From assembly GCF_017348835.2 (NCBI RefSeq), contig NZ_CP072313.1: a stretch of DNA of 36,351 bases. One strand, 5' to 3'. The notes beneath the pieces are model-generated. The model was not told where the DNA came from. It made no database searches and saw only the letters and a program-made list of their open reading frames with translations. Positions 4,951-35,980 of this stretch are shown here, in pieces. Made by a program: the position numbers and the translations under genes. The stretch's first letter is position 1. The number at the start of each line of letters is the position of its first letter. Origin of the DNA: Escherichia coli (GTDB taxonomy: Bacteria > Pseudomonadota > Gammaproteobacteria > Enterobacterales > Enterobacteriaceae).

Positions 4951-5104
4951 TAAGCAGCCCTCATTGGCATCCCCACGACCTGAAGGACGTGGGGTTACGT
5001 CGCATTTGACAGGGATTCCCCATGTAAATCTTAAAGATTCCTGTTGAACATCTTAAATACTTCTGTAGTATACCTATAGTAATTACCTAACAGGGGAGAC
5101 AGTA

Positions 5105-5770
5105 ATGGCTATTTATGCAATATCAATATCAAAAGGTGGGGTGGGAAAAACCACATCTGCTGTACATATAATCGATGAAATAAAGCCTGACGTTGTTTTC
5201 GATCTGGATTTACACCACAGCCTGAGCATAATTAACAGACTGCGACCAGCTGAAAAAAAATGGTCAATAGTGACAGTTTCAGACAAAGCAGAATTGCTCA
5301 CATATCTGAAAAAAATAAATGACGAAGGAAAAACGGCAGTTATCGACTGCGGGGGGTTTGATGCTGATATTAACCGCATCGCTATAGCTGTTGCTGATGT
5401 GATCATCGTTCCGGCAAATGACGATGTTACTGAGCAGATCGGACTTGCCACCTTCGATGCCGTCCTCGCCGAAATATCCAGACAAACAGGCAGAAATATA
5501 CAGGCCCATGTTCTGATGTGTAAAACACAACCTAATCAGAAAAACTTCCCTGATATGGACGATACAATGAAAAAGGTTAAACATATGGCGCTACTGAACG
5601 CTCGCTTATCATATCGTAAAGGACGCTATGGTTTTACCGATTCTTTGCGTAAAGGAATGGGGATAACCCAAATTAAGCATGGTCGTAGTTCACAGGCAGG
5701 ACGAGAAGTTATAGAGCTTGTAAAAGAATTACGCGCTTTATCTTCAGATAACACAGGTTTTCCTGCATAA
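5105..5770 (+). CDS. parA: ParA-family partition ATPase (small ParF-like)
   Basis: deviant Walker A box KGGVGKTT near the N-terminus; followed by a small RHH-like gene; GGAG Shine-Dalgarno. Confidence 0.8.
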   Translation: MAIYAISISKGGVGKTTSAVHIIDEIKPDVVFDLDLHHSLSIINRLRPAEKKWSIVTVSDKAELLTYLKKINDEGKTAVIDCGGFDADINRIAIAVADVIIVPANDDVTEQIGLATFDAVLAEISRQTGRNIQAHVLMCKTQPNQKNFPDMDDTMKKVKHMALLNARLSYRKGRYGFTDSLRKGMGITQIKHGRSSQAGREVIELVKELRALSSDNTGFPA

Positions 5771-5842
5771 ACCCCAAGAGAACCTTAAAGAAACACAAAG
5801 GATTTACCATAGATATCTTAAGGATTCATAAAGGATTTCCGC

Positions 5843-6082
5843 ATGAAAAACAAGCAATCCATTTTTGATGCCGCTCTCAATATTGGTAACGAAGCGCCTT
5901 TACAGGTAAAAAACGAAACGCCAAAACAACGGACGGTCAGAACAAAAACACTAAAAGCCATACCGACAAGATATTTTGATGCACACCTGAAATTAAGAGA
6001 AACAAATAAAACGAATCTCGATTTTTCCAATTACATAATGGAAGCACTACGGGAAAAACTGGAAAAGGATGGCGGACTTTAA
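5843..6082 (+). CDS. ParG-like ribbon-helix-helix centromere-binding protein (79 aa)
   Basis: position directly after parA; basic N-terminal tail and C-terminal RHH-like segment (NLDFSNYIMEALREKLEK). Confidence 0.55.
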   Translation: MKNKQSIFDAALNIGNEAPLQVKNETPKQRTVRTKTLKAIPTRYFDAHLKLRETNKTNLDFSNYIMEALREKLEKDGGL

Positions 6083-6236: not shown

Positions 6237-6491
6237 ATGAAGATTACAACTCTATCCAGTCGGGAACTGAATCAGGATGTAACCAGGGCCAAACGCGCCA
6301 CAAGTGATGGTCCCGTATTTATTACGGATCGGGGTAAAACCGCGCACGTACTTCTTAGTATCGAAGAATACAGGAAATTAACGCAACAACGGCGAACTCT
6401 TATTGACATCCTGGCTATGCCTGATGCTGATGATGTTGAATTTGAACCGCAGCGAATTAATGTTGGTTTAAAACCAGCGGAGTTTTTGTAG
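6237..6491 (+). CDS. vapB: type II antitoxin, Phd/YefM-VapB type
   Basis: N-terminal antitoxin fold pattern (VFITDRGKTAHVLLSIEEYRKL); start of the next gene abuts its stop. Confidence 0.8.
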   Translation: MKITTLSSRELNQDVTRAKRATSDGPVFITDRGKTAHVLLSIEEYRKLTQQRRTLIDILAMPDADDVEFEPQRINVGLKPAEFL

Positions 6492-6907
6492 TGTATATTC
6501 TTGATACAAATGTTATTTCTGAGCTACGAAAGGCCCGTACGGGACGTATAGATAATAATGTTGCAAAATGGGCATTGCATACAGACGCGGCAGATTTCTT
6601 TGTATCTGTTATTACCATAATGGAACTTGAACAGGGAATATTACAGGTTGAGCGTCGAGATATACGCCAGGGGATTATGTTACGTTCCTGGATGGACCAG
6701 CATGTGTTACCAGCGTTTTCTGATAAGATACTTCCTGTAGATACTGCGGTTGCCTTACGTTGTGCTCGGTTACATGTTCCCGACAGACGCAGTGAACGAG
6801 ACGCATTAATAGCGGCAACAGCTCTGGTTCATGGGATGACCGTTGTCACCAGAAATGTTGGTGATTTTGAATTAAGCGGAGTATCAATTATTAATCCCTG
6901 GGATTGA
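6491..6907 (+). CDS. vapC: PIN-domain toxin VapC
   Basis: N-terminal MYILDTNVISE PIN signature with conserved acidic residues; classic antitoxin-toxin arrangement. Confidence 0.85.
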   Translation: MYILDTNVISELRKARTGRIDNNVAKWALHTDAADFFVSVITIMELEQGILQVERRDIRQGIMLRSWMDQHVLPAFSDKILPVDTAVALRCARLHVPDRRSERDALIAATALVHGMTVVTRNVGDFELSGVSIINPWD

Positions 6908-8148: not shown

Positions 8149-9204
8149 CTAGTGGGGTGGAGAAGCTGTCAGGGCCAGTTCAAGCTGACGTAGATCCCTG
8201 GCTACCAGTTGCTCTAATCTTTCTTTAGTGCACCAGTACGCTTCGTCCGGCGACATACGCTTCAGAATAAACCGTGCAATTTCGTTTCGCTGTTCATCAT
8301 ACGGCAGTTTTGCAAGGCGATTGGCACGTTTGCGCTTTGCTGCTTTCTCTCGTCGGAACTTGATGGCATCGAGAGAACGCTGCGCATACCAGCGTTTACG
8401 AGCCGAGTGAACAGAGATTTCCTCGCCCTCGCGGATAACGCCTTCTTTAATCAGTTGCAGACGGATTTCACTTTCTGCAAGGCGCTTACGTTGCTGTTCC
8501 TGAAGTTTCACCAGATCAACTCCCAGCATTTTCCAGCCAGTTTCGGTGATCCAGACGTATTTCGGCAGTCGCTGGCGGGATTCACGGTCCCATATCGTCT
8601 TTTCTGACGTTCCCAACGTGCCAAAGGAAACCTGCTCTGCCAGCAGACGGGAAAGGCGCGATACTGTGACTGCGGTTTCAGGAATAACGTTTCCCTTACT
8701 GTCTTTTGGGCTTATTTCTTCTGCCAGGCGGGAGACAGACATGCCGACAGTGTGCAATCCACGATCACAAAAACTCACAAGTACAACCCATATTGCGTCA
8801 AGCAGCCGCTGTTTCTCCGGTCGGAATTTATATTTGCGACCGACACTCTGACGTTTCAGTACATAAAATGGATGCAACGACATATGCATTCTGAGTGTGT
8901 ACTGACCAGTGACCGGGTCTTTTTTAACGAGACGATTGTAAGCGTGGCCCAACTGTCCGCCCAGCGCCTTATAGCTGTCGGGACGGAACCAGGCTGGATT
9001 CTCACACTTTGGCTTAGTGGAATGTTCACCACGGCGGCGCTTCGTGCTCCGTTTTTCCGGTTCAACCAGAAATGACGTGGCCCTGCCCGATTCGTAATCC
9101 TCCCAGAAAAGGATTTGCTCTTCGGGAGACAGTTCACTCCAGTGTAATGAAGGCCTGTTCAGGGAAGCCATAAGCAATCGCTTATGGCAGAGCTTGATTC
9201 GCAC
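8149..9204 (-). CDS. repA: plasmid replication initiator RepA (IncFII/IncI-complex RepA family)
   Basis: overall resemblance to RepA1/RepZ-type initiators; GTG start at 9204, alternative ATG at 9171; terminator and DnaA box downstream, antisense-RNA-like hairpin upstream. Confidence 0.7.
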   Translation of the reverse strand: MRIKLCHKRLLMASLNRPSLHWSELSPEEQILFWEDYESGRATSFLVEPEKRSTKRRRGEHSTKPKCENPAWFRPDSYKALGGQLGHAYNRLVKKDPVTGQYTLRMHMSLHPFYVLKRQSVGRKYKFRPEKQRLLDAIWVVLVSFCDRGLHTVGMSVSRLAEEISPKDSKGNVIPETAVTVSRLSRLLAEQVSFGTLGTSEKTIWDRESRQRLPKYVWITETGWKMLGVDLVKLQEQQRKRLAESEIRLQLIKEGVIREGEEISVHSARKRWYAQRSLDAIKFRREKAAKRKRANRLAKLPYDEQRNEIARFILKRMSPDEAYWCTKERLEQLVARDLRQLELALTASPPH

Positions 9205-29553: not shown

Positions 29554-29684
29554 TATCTAATGACACGTCTGAAGTATCCGATTAACCAGGGGTGGTTTGT
29601 CGACTTTAGATTGTGCCATATATGGAGTTGTTAGAAGAAAAGGGACTTCCTCCGGTCGGAGCCACCAACTCAAGGCCGGAAAAC

Positions 29685-29716
29685 AAAAAAGCCCGATTAC
29701 CAGTCGGGCTTTTTTG
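29685..29716. terminator. bidirectional rho-independent terminator between convergent topB and relaxase genes
   Basis: AAAAAA-AGCCCGA-TTACCAG-TCGGGCT-TTTTTT; works on both strands. Confidence 0.6.
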
Positions 29717-29723
29717 TTTCTGA

Positions 29724-32700
29724 TTAACGGGACCGCGTGTTATCCCTGTTTCTTTCCCGTTCACGCTCATTTTTCAAAGCGTTGTCATAACTCACTATTT
29801 CACGCTTCACGGCCTCTACCGTTTCAGGTTTTTTCATTGCTGCCTTGAGATCGTTTACATCCTCAAAACGTATGAATTTGAGCGTATCTTTGACTGTTTG
29901 TTTGTCAATATTCATTTCCTTCGCCAGTTGCTTAGAAATTCGCTCAATTTCTCTTTCCATCGCTTTTTCACTATTGACAGTCCGCTTTTTCTTTTCTGTA
30001 GTATTCTCGTTTTTTTCCTCGACTGATTTAGCTTTTTTCTGCCCTTGTTGTTCCTCAAAGGCTTTAATCTGTTCATTAATCGTCTGAGCACGGGCCGAAA
30101 TACTGTTAACCCCTTTCGAAAGCAGATCAACCTCTTCTTTCGGCGCACCATTTTCTACAGCTTCATTCAGTAAACGCTGGGCTTCCTGGTGCTGGCTGGC
30201 AATAACTTTTGCCTCTTCCTGTAGCTGCTGTAGCGATGCGTTATTTTGCTGATGAGGATTTTCAGTGGCTAACGCGGATTTGCTTTGCTCATCTCCGGTC
30301 TGTTTATCCTGACCAGTAGTCACGTCTTTCTCTGTTACCGGCTTCTGTTGCTGCGCTTCTTGTGGCTGCTGCTCGCGTTCTTCAGAATGAGCCGAAACGT
30401 TCTGCTGCACAGACTCCTGTTTTTCCGCTTCCTGTACCACGGATGTTTCAGACGTGGATTTTTGAGAAACAGTTTCTGACTTAACAGGCTGTTCCGGCAC
30501 TGCATCACGCGATTTATCATCATTATGTACAGATTCCGCTACTTCGGGCGTTCTTTCCTTAGCCTGGGTGTCTTTCTCGACTGAATTAACCTGCTCTGCT
30601 CTCTTTTCCTGCTCCTGTTCTGGTTTCTGTCCGGCGACTTGTTGCTGACGCTCTGCCTCGACGCTGTTTTCATGTCCATGTTCAGCTTTCAGTTCCTGGA
30701 GGCGGACCTGCATCATTTCATGATATTTTTCAGGTCGCAGAATAACATTCATCCCCTTCTCGGCTGCCGCCATTGCACAGGCTACCTTAAATTCTTCCGA
30801 GCCATTGAGTTTCAGCATCCCACCAAATTTCTCTTTTGCATAAAGAAGGGCTGCTTCAGCTTTATCCTGGGTAATTTCACCATTTACACGAACATGATTT
30901 CCTTTATCAGTGAAAACAGTCTGTGTTGTCTTCGGATCAAGGTAACGCGTTTCTTTTGGGCTGACCTTATGAGGAACAAGATCGGTTAGTTCACGTTTTA
31001 CATAATCCTGAACTTGCTGGGATTGCTGTACTCGCTTAACTACGCTGAAAACTTCCTTTTCATTACCGGAAGAAATGCTGTTTCCATCAACCGGATTACG
31101 GATTATCTTTTTTAAAGAATCACCTAAAGCCATATCATATCTCCTGTCTGGATTCCAACGGTGATAGTATGAGTTTATTTCGCGAAAACATGCCTTTCGA
31201 ATTGAGTTTATTTCACTCTCTCTTTCCAGCTTTTTAAATATAATGTACCCTCTAGCAACCTCCCGTTCCTGCTTGTTTCTTATCGCCAGAAGCCCTCTGA
31301 GTTCTGCCCTGTAATTAGCTATATTATCATTATGCTTATATTTAATCTCATTATTTACCCAACCTTTATGTTCATTTAAACAAATAAATCTTTCTTTTGC
31401 CTGTTGACGCGTAAGATTTACACGGGTAATAACAGCATCAAAAGGTTTGTTATCTTTCTGATCCTGCCAGATATCAAGTAATACCTCTTTTGCCTCATCC
31501 CATTCAAGATTCAGATGTTTAGTTAAAAAATCACTGGCATTCATATTTCGATTGCCAACTCTGAAACGCGGAGATCCATCCTGTCCATAGGTGACAGTAT
31601 GCTTTGATGGATCTATGTTAAAGCGTGTTTGCAGATTGGACAAATAACGTTCAGCATTAATTTCTGTGCGAATTTGTTTCAAAAAAGGTAAATCATCACT
31701 GCGCTGAATCGCCGCTTTAATATTTGATTCAAGCGCTGACTGAACTACTCTTCTTCCTGCTCTATCCTGCAACCGTCGCACATATCGATCTGGATCGACT
31801 TTTTGTCGTCCAGCCGTTGATAAATAACCGTATTCATTTTGCTGCAATAACAACTGAGATTTATTAATGCTTTTCCCACCTGATCTTCCGTGAAGTCCGT
31901 AAACCAGTTTGCGTGCTGGCAGACGTGGCAATCCGATTGTCTTACCGGATACAAACTTTCCGGTATTGTATTTAATACCGGACTGGTCACTATTCTGTCG
32001 TCGGTCCTGTCTTTGAAGGTTGTGTTTTTCGTCATAACGATTAATTACCTTTTTCAGATACATTTGCTTATCTTCACCAGCAAGTGCTGCATATTCTTTA
32101 CGAATTTTTTGCCCTGCCGGATGAATATGTTTTATCTCATGACTGATCGAACTCTTCCAGTCTTTCAGATGACTCTCAATCTGCGTCTTTGTGGGTTTTA
32201 AAAGTGGTATAGTTCGATCAGAGATATACTGACGTGAAAATAAAGGGCTTTTGAGTCGAGTAAATTTAGAGTCTCCTTCGAGCTTCACACCAAAGTAGCG
32301 ATCAGACTTCCCCTTATTATACTCCTTTACCTCACCAAAACGGGAAAGATAATCAGAAAATTGTTTCTCTGTTCGGATATTCTCTGTATCCAGCGCATCA
32401 AAAACCGTGGTTTTAAACTCACTGTGCCGCTCACGGTAAAAATCGCCTTTAGCCCTGGATAATACATTAGCGTGGTTATGGTCACTGACTCTGACACCAT
32501 CTTTAGGAGAAACAAGATTGTATTTATTATTAATGTGCTCCTGTATGGCATCAAGATGTTTCAAATAATGGTTAATAACTCCCCCAGGATTTAGTTTATT
32601 TCCTGTCACCAGATTAACTTCAGGGATAACAATGTGAATGTGAGGCTTACGCTCAACCATTTCTCCTGTTTTATGATCAGGCATCTGTTTTATTTTTGGA

Positions 32701-33011
32701 AGATGCGCTTCCGCATAAAAATTATATTCATCTTCATGATAAGCGTTCATCATGAGAGACTTGTATTCCTGGACTACATCATGCAACTTTGATTCAGAAA
32801 CATCATCTTCAAAAAAGGATAACGTAATATGCATATAGCGCTCTTGACCATTATCAGGTATCGCGTCAATAACTGATTCAGTCAATGCCAGATCGCCATC
32901 CAGAACTAATCGATGGTCAATTTCATCTCGGGTATATTCCCTTCCTTGCTTATGACCTTTTTCAAGGTATTCGCATACCCCCTTATTGCCACCGCTGATT
33001 CTGACTAACAT
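29724..33011 (-). CDS. conjugative relaxase (TaxC/MOB-type) with long Q/E/K-rich C-terminal extension
   Basis: 1095 aa; histidine-triad motif HIHIVIPEVN in the N-terminal domain; adjacent to the accessory gene and putative oriT. Confidence 0.85.
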   Translation of the reverse strand: MLVRISGGNKGVCEYLEKGHKQGREYTRDEIDHRLVLDGDLALTESVIDAIPDNGQERYMHITLSFFEDDVSESKLHDVVQEYKSLMMNAYHEDEYNFYAEAHLPKIKQMPDHKTGEMVERKPHIHIVIPEVNLVTGNKLNPGGVINHYLKHLDAIQEHINNKYNLVSPKDGVRVSDHNHANVLSRAKGDFYRERHSEFKTTVFDALDTENIRTEKQFSDYLSRFGEVKEYNKGKSDRYFGVKLEGDSKFTRLKSPLFSRQYISDRTIPLLKPTKTQIESHLKDWKSSISHEIKHIHPAGQKIRKEYAALAGEDKQMYLKKVINRYDEKHNLQRQDRRQNSDQSGIKYNTGKFVSGKTIGLPRLPARKLVYGLHGRSGGKSINKSQLLLQQNEYGYLSTAGRQKVDPDRYVRRLQDRAGRRVVQSALESNIKAAIQRSDDLPFLKQIRTEINAERYLSNLQTRFNIDPSKHTVTYGQDGSPRFRVGNRNMNASDFLTKHLNLEWDEAKEVLLDIWQDQKDNKPFDAVITRVNLTRQQAKERFICLNEHKGWVNNEIKYKHNDNIANYRAELRGLLAIRNKQEREVARGYIIFKKLERESEINSIRKACFREINSYYHRWNPDRRYDMALGDSLKKIIRNPVDGNSISSGNEKEVFSVVKRVQQSQQVQDYVKRELTDLVPHKVSPKETRYLDPKTTQTVFTDKGNHVRVNGEITQDKAEAALLYAKEKFGGMLKLNGSEEFKVACAMAAAEKGMNVILRPEKYHEMMQVRLQELKAEHGHENSVEAERQQQVAGQKPEQEQEKRAEQVNSVEKDTQAKERTPEVAESVHNDDKSRDAVPEQPVKSETVSQKSTSETSVVQEAEKQESVQQNVSAHSEEREQQPQEAQQQKPVTEKDVTTGQDKQTGDEQSKSALATENPHQQNNASLQQLQEEAKVIASQHQEAQRLLNEAVENGAPKEEVDLLSKGVNSISARAQTINEQIKAFEEQQGQKKAKSVEEKNENTTEKKKRTVNSEKAMEREIERISKQLAKEMNIDKQTVKDTLKFIRFEDVNDLKAAMKKPETVEAVKREIVSYDNALKNERERERNRDNTRSR

Positions 33012-33409
33012 TTATTAATCCCTGCAACAAACGCATCACGAATATTAACAAGAACATTAAGATAGCGTAAATATGTACTTTCTGAAATAAAACCATTGCG
33101 ATATTCTGTGTTAATTTTTTTGGCTATCTGATTAATATTATTGCTTGACTTATTAAAAAGTCTGAGTAATTCTCTGTATTCAACTGGACGTTTTTGTTTC
33201 AAAGTCGGAATATCATCCAGACGATTCAGTATAACCATCCGAAAAAACTCACTACGACTGACTTCAAGAGATGTAAAATACTCATGAAATGACTGATATT
33301 CCTCATCAGTCAATCGCAGTGATATCACATGTTTTCTCTCCACCTTTGATGTGGAAGCTACAGCCTTTTTTCCTTTGTCTTGTTTTTTCATGGTTCGTAG
33401 AACCTCCAT
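33005..33409 (-). CDS. relaxosome accessory protein (TaxA-like, probable RHH DNA-binding)
   Basis: small basic protein immediately upstream of and overlapping the relaxase gene; start may be at ATG 33391. Confidence 0.6.
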   Translation of the reverse strand: MEVLRTMKKQDKGKKAVASTSKVERKHVISLRLTDEEYQSFHEYFTSLEVSRSEFFRMVILNRLDDIPTLKQKRPVEYRELLRLFNKSSNNINQIAKKINTEYRNGFISESTYLRYLNVLVNIRDAFVAGINKC

Positions 33410-33560
33410 ATAGCGACCTGGTTGTAGAGATATACTGGGGTATTAGGGGGAGATCCCCCTAAGCACGTCGATTATACCGGAATTTATTCCGTGTATACAT
33501 CGCTGTCGTGCCTGTGTCTTGTAGTAAGATCAATTGAACAAGTCACAAGCCCACATTACA
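33410..33560. other. putative origin of transfer (oriT)
   Basis: intergenic between divergent relaxase operon and stb-like genes; perfect inverted repeat TTAGGGGG-AGAT-CCCCCTAA at 33443-33462; second repeat CGGAAT-TTA-TTCCG nearby. Confidence 0.5.
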
Positions 33561-33700
33561 ACCTACACAACAACCCACACACAAAAGCATGAAGCCCACA
33601 AAACAACCCACACTTAAACCCACAAAAAAGACCACAAAACCTATTGACAACCCACACAACACCCCACATAATCACCCACACTAACGAAAAGCAAATTGAT
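33545..33700. repeat. array of about 9 CCCACA-containing direct repeats at about 10-12 bp spacing
   Basis: CCCACA recurs (agCCCACAtt, caaCCCACAcac, agCCCACAaaa, aaCCCACActt, aaCCCACAaaa, ...), upstream of the StbA-like gene. Confidence 0.6.
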
Positions 33701-33752
33701 TTAAATAAAGTACTGTGCCAATGTAGGAGGTATGAGAGAGGAAACATAACAA

Positions 33753-34154
33753 ATGAAAAAGATCGATAGTTTATTATCTCCAATATGCGAGACGATAAAA
33801 GAAACAAATTCAAAATCAAAACAGGCTGTCTTCAATATGTATTTATCGAACATACTTGAAGCAAAAAGTTATTATACATGGGAGCAAATAACAGATTACA
33901 TAAATAACAACACCAAGACAGAACTAGCCAAAAAGACTTATATGAACATGACAGAGAGAGCCAAAAAAAGGCAAAAATGCACTGAGCAAAAAGATCTAAG
34001 AAAAAGCACCAATATAATTGAAAAAAAAACAGATGAAGACAACAAACAAAGAGGGGGCGTAAAAGGATTTTTTTCAACAATCAGCGAGAACAAAAACGAA
34101 ATAGATCACGATCCAAGCGCAACCAATGAAAAATTTATAAACAAATATCTTTAA
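33753..34154 (+). CDS. basic Lys/Asn-rich protein, possible StbA-like DNA-binding protein
   Basis: position after the repeat array and before a ParA-like ATPase; GAGAGG Shine-Dalgarno. Confidence 0.45.
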   Translation: MKKIDSLLSPICETIKETNSKSKQAVFNMYLSNILEAKSYYTWEQITDYINNNTKTELAKKTYMNMTERAKKRQKCTEQKDLRKSTNIIEKKTDEDNKQRGGVKGFFSTISENKNEIDHDPSATNEKFINKYL

Positions 34155-34171
34155 GTAAAGGTGTATCATAA

Positions 34172-34927
34172 ATGAAAAACTCAATAAATTTTATCCTTCA
34201 AGGAAAAGGCGGTGTAGGAAAATCATTTACAACGGCAATACTAGCACAATACTTTATTGATGAAAAAAACATGGATAACGTCGTTGTAGGCGACACAGAT
34301 CCTGTAAATACAACTACAGTTAAAGTAAAAAGATTAAATGCTGATTTAATACAAATCACTGAAAACAGCAAAGTAGTCCAATCTAAATTCGATCCAATGT
34401 TCGAATCAATGCTAACTAATGGTCAAAATACATTTGTCATTGATAATGGTGCTTCTACATTTTTACCATTAATTCAGTATTTCAATGACAACTATGTAAT
34501 GGATATGTTTAACGAAGTTGAACAAGAAGTTTATATCCATACTATTATTGTTGGCGGTCAGGCACAAGCAGATACAATAGAAGGTTTTGAAGATCTTGTT
34601 AAACTAGTAAAAGGAACAAAAGTAAAAATAATAGTATGGATTAATGAATTTCAGGGTGCACCAGCACTTGAAAACATTCCTTTAATTAAAACTAAATTCA
34701 TTGAAAAAAATAAGGATGTCATCGCTGGAGTTGTGGTTATTCAGGACAGAAAAAGCGATGCCTTTGCTTCTGACATCAAAAATTTAACCGAAAAATCACT
34801 AACATTAAAAGAAGCCCTTGAATCAGAATATTTTGGATTAATGGCTAAATCTCGTCTCAAGCGAGTTTTTAACGATATATATGTGCAACTTGATTCAATC
34901 TATGACATGCAGCACACAGAAGCATAA
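34172..34927 (+). CDS. ParA/MinD-superfamily P-loop ATPase (StbB-like)
   Basis: deviant Walker A GKGGVGKS near the N-terminus; adjacent to putative oriT. Confidence 0.7.
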   Translation: MKNSINFILQGKGGVGKSFTTAILAQYFIDEKNMDNVVVGDTDPVNTTTVKVKRLNADLIQITENSKVVQSKFDPMFESMLTNGQNTFVIDNGASTFLPLIQYFNDNYVMDMFNEVEQEVYIHTIIVGGQAQADTIEGFEDLVKLVKGTKVKIIVWINEFQGAPALENIPLIKTKFIEKNKDVIAGVVVIQDRKSDAFASDIKNLTEKSLTLKEALESEYFGLMAKSRLKRVFNDIYVQLDSIYDMQHTEA

Positions 34928-34976
34928 GTGATTATATAACAGCCCTTATGGGCTGTTATATTCATGAGGACAAGTT

Positions 34977-35654
34977 ATGATTAATGATAAATCCTTTAAC
35001 ATTGAAAACATTATTTCTGATATTTTTAAAGAAACCAGATTAAAAATAAGTAAGGACGATCCTGTTTTAAGCATAGTACTAATGCATGAAAAAATACTCG
35101 AACATGCACTAACACAACTTAAAAACAGTAATCAAATAGCTACTGAAAGATTATCTCATGACATATCTTCAATAAGAGATGCAATCAACGCATTACCTGA
35201 AGCTATTGATGAAAAAACGTCAGAACTACAACATGCAGCAGTAGCACTTCATGACGAATTCCAGGAAAGCAAAGGAGAAATTAAAGGTTCTCTGGAAGAA
35301 GCACGAATTAATGCAACAGAGAAATTAGCAGAAAGTGCAAAAGAACTTCAATTAAACATTACAAAAGTTGCCGAAAAAACAACAGAAACAATAGACACAG
35401 TAAATAAAATAATAAGCAATATAGAAACCGAACTATATGACATAAATAAAAAAGCTCTACATGATTATGTAAAAGAGATTAAGTTAGTGGATGAAAAAAG
35501 AAAAAGTATAACAACTAACCTGGAAAGTGCAATTAATGACGCTTTCAAAAAAAGCGTAAAATCGTTTAAGTTTTATTGTAGCGCGGCATTAATTATTAGC
35601 ACTCTACTACAATTCACAATGTGGGGGTTCTTTCTATATAAGCTTCTGACCTGA
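34977..35654 (+). CDS. coiled-coil protein with C-terminal transmembrane anchor (225 aa)
   Basis: GAGGA Shine-Dalgarno; C-terminal hydrophobic segment AALIISTLLQFTMWGFFLY. Confidence 0.5.
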   Translation: MINDKSFNIENIISDIFKETRLKISKDDPVLSIVLMHEKILEHALTQLKNSNQIATERLSHDISSIRDAINALPEAIDEKTSELQHAAVALHDEFQESKGEIKGSLEEARINATEKLAESAKELQLNITKVAEKTTETIDTVNKIISNIETELYDINKKALHDYVKEIKLVDEKRKSITTNLESAINDAFKKSVKSFKFYCSAALIISTLLQFTMWGFFLYKLLT

Positions 35655-35860
35655 TGTTTTAAATGCCGCTTTAGCGGCATGGAAGGCGGCACTCTGTAGC
35701 TAAATGTGGTTTCGCTGGTTATCCGCCGAAGCCCCGCGCTAGCGGGTGCTGAATTCTATATTCTGAGGAACAGCGCTCGCGCCCCCTGCTAAGCCAAAAA
35801 CGCACGAAACCAACAGCCACTCGATTGTTTCTGGTCGAAGACTGACAATGTTAAAGCGAC
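35655..35860 (+). repeat. type-B structured element copy 4
   Basis: hairpin ATGCCGC-TTTA-GCGGCAT; starts at the stop of the upstream gene. Confidence 0.8.
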
Positions 35861-35980
35861 GTGACAAAAATATTTGAGCAACTACTCAAGAAAATTCGGT
35901 TTTGAAATTGAACAATGGTCTGATTTCACACCGACAATGCAATATTAATCTGCCGTTACAACGTCACTGAAACTCTGCTC

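Follow-up and report, generated by a model that had tools for sequence, protein, structure and literature searches.

In a 36,351-nucleotide (nt) stretch of Escherichia coli DNA (NZ_CP072313.1; hereafter the window), which makes up nearly the whole of a small resistance-type plasmid of ~37 kb, the segment at 33410-35654 is best explained as the origin of transfer (oriT) and an adjoining "leader operon" of an IncI2/IncX4-type plasmid of the MOBP, NikA/NikB class, and we regard this explanation as a whole, including the mechanism proposed below, as likely to be correct. Sequence comparisons indicate that the operon is a hybrid, in which TraL and TraM-like genes of the IncP type accompany an array of iterons and a gene for a putative StbA-like DNA-binding protein of 133 amino acids (aa). 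The operon probably serves to assemble, under autoregulation, a nucleoprotein complex next to the nick that assists transfer. The coordinates of the features are listed in Table 1.

The array lies between the oriT hairpins and the first gene of the operon. The window contains 24 exact copies of CCCACA (13.7 ± 3.7 expected), and 8 of these lie within 33550-33680, every one on the + strand (Poisson P = 3e-18 for at least 8 copies in 131 nt). Together with the one-mismatch units CCTACA (33562) and ACCACA (33631), they form ten units in blocks of 3, 4, and 3, with a period of exactly 12 bp inside the blocks and inter-block gaps of 21 and 20 bp. No CCCACA pairs spaced 10 to 13 bp were found elsewhere in the window on either strand. 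The initial annotation of this DNA, which had noted about nine repeats at helical spacing ending at 33700, was therefore correct in recognizing a real array, but the units number ten, their period is 12 bp and not 10.5 bp, and the last one ends at 33680. The third block sits within and just past the core of a sigma-70 promoter, TTGACA-17-CATAAT, which was the top promoter site in 33300-35800, and it thus has classical operator geometry; phased direct repeats that lie upstream of and overlap the promoter of their own operon are the StbA-type arrangement, as in the R388 control with its 11-bp repeats. The promoter, block C, and the majority of the remaining cores are unchanged in six lineages with 83 to 99% identity, whereas the spacers and a few upstream copies drift, the latter by single substitutions. 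No description of CCCACA iterons, of their promoter overlap, or of the module swap described below was found in the searchable literature.

It is of negligible likelihood that the repeats serve as replication iterons or arose by chance as a low-complexity tract. Iteron replicons typically contain direct repeats spaced at roughly one helical turn, but the gene for RepA (8152-9171), an IncFII/IncI-type initiator, is ~24 kb distant, and the same array-gene module occurs on plasmids typed IncI2 and IncX4; a chance tract is excluded by the above-mentioned P value and by conservation. The array was likewise rejected as a ParA centromere or as RepA iterons on account of its position and its spread across different backbones.

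The protein to which the array belongs was indicated by a comparison of ten oriT lineages, namely, the window, five PLSDB relatives with a CCCACA-type array, pNIID8_2, an Arsenophonus plasmid, and two metagenomic or genomic contigs that were found via remote homologs of the small protein. The window and IncI2 plasmids both have CCCACA cores, and their small proteins are 77% identical. In distant relatives, a phased array occupies the corresponding position, but its core differs: (G)ACACACA in pNIID8_2, whose small protein is 47% identical to that of the window; CTACA or TGACA in Arsenophonus paIh5 (24% identical); AACCACA, with a period of 11 to 12 bp, in lineage L013; and GTACA in lineage L014. 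The order of small gene and ATPase gene on the leading side of oriT recurs in five further lineages, including the remote paIh5, L013, and L014, in which NikA-like and relaxase genes likewise lie on the other side. Furthermore, a natural swap separates the array from the relaxosome genes. Lineage L004 and pNIID8_2 have identical NikA proteins (WP_000963832.1) and are 87 to 100% identical on the relaxase side as far as TCGTGCCTGT, and their identity then falls to 37 to 72% over the next 700 nt; between L004 and the window, by contrast, the array, the small gene, and TraL are 87 to 100% identical and the relaxase side is 42 to 82% identical. In this swap, the array has therefore stayed with the small gene rather than with NikA or the relaxase. 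The swap is the strongest evidence for assigning the array to the small protein, and the specific cooperative binding and promoter repression proposed for that protein are supported only indirectly, by the same swap and by the co-variation of core and protein.

These comparisons also bear on two other readings of the array. That the repeats bind relaxosome proteins, either NikA or the relaxase, instead of the small protein is in our view highly improbable. Ribbon-helix-helix proteins often bind direct-repeat arrays, as stated in general terms in the introduction of bioRxiv 2022.04.29.490116, and the array begins ~35 nt from the predicted nick; however, L004 and pNIID8_2, with the same NikA and near-identical relaxase-side DNA, have CCCACA and ACACACA cores, respectively, each matching its own small-protein allele, and block C occupies the operon promoter, where an autoregulator would be expected to bind. 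The second reading, in which the array acts as single-stranded DNA (ssDNA), being the first ~170 nt of the transferred strand, and its extreme A+C bias would serve entry, priming, or protection in the recipient, is very unlikely. The composition of 33540-33690 is extreme (A73 C57 G8 T13), the array comes directly 3' of the predicted nick, on the leading side, and a large ssDNA-hairpin element is found further downstream. However, different lineages have different repeat cores, which vary together with the small protein, the strict 12-bp phasing and the promoter overlap suit duplex operator sites, and the strand bias follows from the direct repetition of an asymmetric motif.

The homology breakpoint between lineages falls within a 60-nt window that starts at TCGTGCCT and coincides with the predicted nick region. 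In the three-way comparison of L004, pNIID8_2, and the window, homology switches at 33506-33520. This position suggests that the two sides of oriT, the relaxase side and the leading side, behave as exchangeable modules, with relaxase-mediated recombination as a possible route.

The first gene on the leading side of oriT encodes the 133-aa protein and is followed by a Walker-type ATPase gene, in agreement with the initial annotation, which had placed a small basic protein (its pI is 9.2) after the repeats. The protein has an N-terminal helical domain with a putative helix-turn-helix (approximately residues 1 to 80), a disordered linker, and the conserved C-terminal motif VKGFFS...HDPSATNEKF. 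No named family was found for it in Pfam, NCBIfam, or PDB sequence searches with either the single sequence or a profile. A word-index protein search retrieved only relatives with at least 70% identity, and an exhaustive profile search was needed for distant members; the resulting family has 46 representatives (50% identity; E ≤ 0.001), including fragments and one repetitive 591-aa match. Its members share an N-terminal domain of ~80 residues (KSKQAaFN...ysWe.I..IN..T...Y..M..RAKkK), and their C termini are variable. When the family was aligned with the R388 StbA family by hhalign, the match (E = 4.4e-4; probability, 34%; 79 columns) was in register with the StbA helix-turn-helix, which is modest evidence, consistent with the N-terminal domain being a remote homolog of the tri-helical StbA domain (residues 1 to 75) and in agreement with the PSI-BLAST link reported for YciA of R721 (PMC3098194).

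The C-terminal motif, VKGFFS...E/D-H/Y-D-P-S-A-T..KF..KY in its more general form (34050-34151; residues ~100 to 133), follows the disordered linker. Its conservation extends over part of the family, and a different, longer C-terminal domain is found in another subfamily. The motif might serve as a partner-binding peptide, with TraL as one candidate partner. NCBI records label the family "zinc transporter"; no matching domain was found, the model being a soluble helical domain with a disordered tail, and the label, which was rejected, looks like a propagated misannotation.

The second gene encodes an ATPase of the TraL type. The initial annotation had called it ParA-like, and it does have a ParA/MinD-type P-loop, but in the narrower sense of an R388 StbB homolog the comparison fails, with a BLASTP E value of 0.12 to R388 StbB and a Walker A motif of GKGGVGKS rather than SGxxGK[T/S]. 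Similarity to IncP TraL extends over the full length and includes the KGGxxK[T/S] motif: the match to PRK13886 covers residues 5 to 243 of 251 (179 bits, below the curated cutoff of 360), and TraL of the IncP-1 plasmid pAKD4 is 36% identical (E = 8e-49). Full-length homologs occur in 1,282 plasmid records. The ATPase falls in the TraL branch of the "StbB-like" proteins of Guynet et al. 2011 (PMC3098194), who named IncI2 R721 explicitly. The third gene product weakly resembles TraM of pAKD4 over its N-terminal 110 aa (BLASTP E = 1e-4), its match to NCBIfam TraM has an E value of 0.045, and no similarity to R388 StbC was found.

Whether such an operon serves transfer or stability can be approached through the IncI2 plasmid TP114, for which high-density transposon data are available (PMC7508951, Supplementary Data 1). 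TP114-043, the positional ortholog of the small protein and annotated there as a putative zinc transporter, has the four scores -, +, -, and ++; traL has -, -, +, and ++; TP114-045, the third gene, has - in all four; and parA has ++ in all four. Insertions in TP114-043 and traL reduced conjugation and left maintenance unaffected, whereas parA was essential for maintenance (PMC7508951). In addition, the window has a separate partition-type ParA ATPase gene with a 79-aa partner gene at 5105-6082. The separate ParA and the lack of a maintenance phenotype in TP114 point to a function of the operon closer to that of IncP traK-L-M than to the R388 stability switch, and the R388-like balance between stability and transfer that the initial annotation proposed probably does not apply here. 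More generally, the data suggest that Stb-like modules with a TraL-type ATPase act in transfer and not in stability.

These data also reduce the standing of the reading in which the array is a centromere like R388 stbS, the small protein serves chiefly in partition or positioning, and the operon trades stability against transfer. The multi-block direct-repeat architecture is like that of stbS, the 12-bp repeats of tubC, to which the StbA paper (bioRxiv 2022.04.29.490116) refers, are also similar, and R388 itself provides a precedent (PMC3098194). Nevertheless, the separate ParA and small partner gene, the TP114 scores, in which maintenance requires parA and the orthologs of the small protein and TraL are "-" for maintenance and positive for conjugation, and the TraL-type rather than StbB-type ATPase make this reading unlikely.

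Several observations weigh against the explanation that we prefer, that is, a StbA-like protein assembling on the array to assist transfer. The 12-bp period exceeds a helical turn, so that bound proteins would spiral round the DNA instead of occupying one face. The array of lineage L014 is weak and irregular. The small-protein family matches the TraK family PF17273 only weakly in hhalign, with an E value of 0.023 and a probability of 2% (E = 0.1 for the reference comparison of StbA with TraK), and no PF17273 match of the 133-aa protein was found in the Pfam scan. Finally, the TP114 phenotypes are modest (+ or ++ in some conditions only), and the TP114-043 insertions may be polar on traL.

The oriT region itself is intergenic and lies between two divergent gene sets, the NikA-like and relaxase genes on the - strand and the 133-, 251-, and 225-aa open reading frames on the + strand. 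The ribbon-helix-helix gene and the relaxase gene thus adjoin the site and are transcribed away from it, as in NikA/NikB-type MOBP plasmids, and an inverted repeat lies 5' of a conserved core, TCGTGCCT, as in oriTs of this type. The perfect inverted repeat IR1, which the initial annotation had reported, has arms at 33443-33451 and 33454-33462 that are 9 nt each and 100% complementary, with a loop of 2 nt. A second repeat, also claimed there, was identified as a bulged hairpin, IR2, which starts directly after IR1 when the strand is folded as ssDNA; because of its bulges, it was missed by the gapless repeat finder. The minimum free energy of IR1 plus IR2 as ssDNA was -18.6 kcal/mol, compared with -8.2 ± 2.1 for shuffled sequences (z = -5.05; 0 of 200 shuffles as good). 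Both hairpins persist across the ten lineages while their sequences change. The IR1 arms alternate between TTAGGGGG/CCCCCTAA and CAAAGGGG/CCCCTTTG, with three compensatory arm changes by eye, and RNAalifold counted six pairs in the MAFFT alignment as double-changed with pairing retained, five of them in IR2; just one IR1 pair was counted because the register shifts by one. The outer arms of IR2 are conserved in sequence, whereas its apical stem covaries (CCGGAAT/ATTCCG, GGCCAT/ATGGC, ACCGAT/ATCGGT, and GACCG/CGGTC), and IR2 is the probable recognition hairpin of NikA and the relaxase.

The 8 nt of TCGTGCCT (33506-33513), directly after IR2, are invariant in 10 of the 10 lineages. With the flanking NikA-like and relaxase genes and the compensatory hairpin changes, this invariance supports the earlier designation of the region as a probable nic region, here of the NikA/NikB type. 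From conservation, the lineage breakpoint, and the likeness to the MOBP core YATCCTG↓Y (the arrow marks the nick), seen in pAKD4 as CTATCCTG↓CCC, we predict that the + strand is nicked at about 33513-33515. An alternative nick at ATCGCTG↓T (33499-33505) is less likely because the -1 base varies (G, C, or A) among relatives. No mapped nick site of an IncI2 or IncX4 plasmid was found in the searchable literature.

Table 1. Features of the oriT region, the leader operon, and the adjoining relaxosome genes (positions in the window)
Feature	Position	Strand	Basis
Relaxase, 1095 aa, NikB/MOBP-type, MobA/VirD2 nuclease domain and LPD7	29724..33011	-	Pfam LPD7 E 2.2e-15; Relaxase PF03432 E 1.2e-3, residues 54-166
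Relaxosome accessory protein, 134 aa, NikA-like ribbon-helix-helix	33005..33409	-	Pfam NikA-like PF21983 E 2.3e-8
IR1, perfect 9+9 inverted repeat, TTAGGGGGA ga TCCCCCTAA	33443..33462	+	Repeat finder
IR2, long bulged hairpin	33463..33511	+	ssDNA fold and RNAalifold covariation
Predicted nick region, TCGTGCCTGT, first 8 nt invariant in ten lineages	33506..33515	+	Conservation, lineage breakpoint
Repeat block A: CCCACA, CCTACA, CCCACA at 33550, 33562, 33574	33550..33579	+	Motif count
Repeat block B: three CCCACA and ACCACA at 33595, 33607, 33619, 33631	33595..33636	+	Motif count
Repeat block C: three CCCACA at 33651, 33663, 33675	33651..33680	+	Motif count; operator position
Sigma-70 promoter of the operon, TTGACA-17 nt-CATAAT	33644..33672	+	11/12 consensus matches
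133-aa basic protein, putative remote StbA relative	33753..34154	+	First gene of three-gene operon
TraL-type ParA/MinD-like ATPase, 251 aa, Walker A GKGGVGKS	34172..34927	+	NCBIfam TraL PRK13886 E 8.5e-53
225-aa coiled-coil protein, hydrophobic C terminus, weakly TraM-like	34977..35654	+	BLASTP pAKD4 TraM E 1e-4

In the mechanism that we propose, NikA and the relaxase would recognize the IR2 hairpin, and the + strand would be nicked in or just after TCGTGCCT, an orientation by which the repeat array and the operon would enter the recipient first. The 133-aa protein would bind the ten 12-bp-spaced CCCACA iterons cooperatively via its StbA-like helix-turn-helix domain, and since block C overlaps the -35 and -10 elements, binding there is proposed to repress the protein's own operon. 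The whole array would be assembled into a nucleoprotein complex beside the nick, like those of RP4 TraK and R388 StbA, and this complex and the TraL ATPase would promote or tune conjugative DNA processing; it would not be the main partition system of the plasmid. A further, speculative step, which we consider doubtful, is that an exchangeable "leading-edge cassette," made up of the array together with the genes for the StbA-like protein, TraL, and the TraM-like protein, recombines between plasmid backbones at the nick site. In this cassette, the helix-turn-helix protein would polymerize on the 12-bp iterons into a ParR/TubR-like superhelical filament, and its conserved C-terminal peptide VKGFFS...HDPSATNEKF would recruit the TraL ATPase. 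If this were true, machinery of the partition type would have been put to a new use in the clinically dominant mcr-1 plasmids (IncI2 and IncX4), namely, delivery of the relaxosome to the type IV secretion system.

The layout was compared with those of known systems. The initial annotation had likened it to that of IncW R388, and the repeats, the small basic gene, the order of gene and ATPase, and the putative remote StbA link bear this out, whereas the period, the branch of the ATPase, and the third gene do not. As in R388 stbA-stbB-stbC, a small basic protein with an N-terminal helix-turn-helix domain (putative in the window) and a nonconserved C-terminal part is encoded by the first of three genes on the leading side of oriT, a location common to all Stb-type systems (Guynet et al., PMC3098194), and a P-loop ATPase is encoded by the second; the small protein has apparent remote sequence and fold similarity to StbA, and, as in stbS, direct-repeat blocks at approximately one helical turn overlap the operon promoter. 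StbA binds to the 11-bp direct repeats of R388 and acts as a repressor of its own promoter (PMC3098194; bioRxiv 2022.04.29.490116). The window differs from R388 in having a 12-bp period, a 6-bp core, and a 3+4+3 arrangement (11 bp, 9 bp, and 5+5 in R388), only one array, the rest of the window having no additional operator sites, an ATPase of the TraL branch (KGGxxKS) rather than the StbB branch (SGxxGKS), a third gene unrelated to StbC, a MOBP instead of a MOBF relaxase, and a ParA of its own, with orthologs in TP114 that are dispensable for maintenance.

Like the IncP-1 plasmids (RP4/RK2 and pAKD4), the window has a divergent accessory gene and relaxase gene, followed by oriT and then by genes for a small protein (a putative oriT-binding protein in the window), a TraL that is 36% identical over its full length, and a third protein with weak N-terminal similarity to TraM; a separate partition system lies elsewhere, and the role appears to be in transfer efficiency rather than maintenance. 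RP4 TraK binds between nic and traK (cited in PMC3098194). In contrast to IncP-1, the first gene of the operon lies outside the TraK family PF17273, the one traK upstream region examined (pAKD4) has no comparable phased array, and the predicted nick core is GTGCCTG and not ATCCTG. The IncI1 plasmid R64 likewise has a NikA-like ribbon-helix-helix protein and a MOBP relaxase transcribed away from oriT and an inverted repeat 5' of the nick core, but its nick core sequence is different, and the relaxase of the window carries an LPD7 domain. Neither a TraL operon nor a phased array is known from the leading side of R64.

The closest counterparts are R721 YciA and TP114-043 with traL in IncI2, which belong to the same protein family and occupy the same position; the array, the small gene, and TraL are common to the window and IncI2 plasmids at ~83% DNA identity. 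R721 was listed as a Stb-type system by Guynet et al. 2011 (PMC3098194), and the window operon is therefore a further case of a known design rather than a new kind of system, although the earlier work on R721 gave only a PSI-BLAST link and a synteny cartoon. The present analysis adds an operator and iteron map, a nick region predicted to about 10 nt, a small-protein family remotely linked to StbA, and a natural swap that assigns the array to the small protein, and a transfer role for modules combining Stb-like and TraL components would refine how the R388 paradigm generalizes. The interest of the system stems mainly from its presence on plasmid types that spread mcr-1: colistin resistance due to mcr-1 is carried mainly by IncI2 and IncX4-type plasmids, whose oriT and accessory proteins are poorly described.

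The segment tested, 32900-35700, is 99.9% identical to CP056572 and pDETEC35, and CP103482 is 99.9 to 100% identical over two sub-stretches; CP103482-type plasmids are collinear with the window in tblastn. Near-identical plasmids were typed by MOB-suite as having an IncI2 replicon and a MOBP relaxase, and the backbone carries a VirB-type type IV secretion system, topoisomerase III, Hha, and H-NS. MOB-suite calls these plasmids "mobilizable" despite a complete VirB1-11 set and a type IV coupling protein. Relatives with the same oriT module are typed either IncI2 or IncX4, and backbone typing is thus decoupled from the transfer module. The 134-aa accessory protein also matched DUF6290 (E = 3e-6), MobC, and NCBIfam VirD1 (E = 2.4e-5). 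Upstream of the ParA locus, two 22-nt direct repeats (5014-5057) constitute a candidate centromere, and the locus is followed by a Phd/VapC addiction pair at 6237-6907.

Just downstream of the relaxase gene, an Rfam match to the AgrB antisense RNA was found at 29631-29716 on the + strand (61.9 bits; E = 2.7e-8), and a related plasmid is annotated with a DinQ-like type I toxin gene, dqlB, in this area. Beyond the operon, a GC-rich element of ~570 bp (35663-36232; core, 35981-36234) contains long inverted repeats nested within one another (arm pairs, 47, 40, and 19 nt) and folds as ssDNA far better than shuffled sequences (z = -9.4). We regard it as a probable single-strand initiation (ssi) or ssDNA-hairpin element located in the leading region. 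Its right part, 254 bp in length, is 93 to 95% identical to unannotated sequence in >5000 enterobacterial plasmids, and in an IncFII plasmid the counterpart lies ~600 bp downstream of repA.

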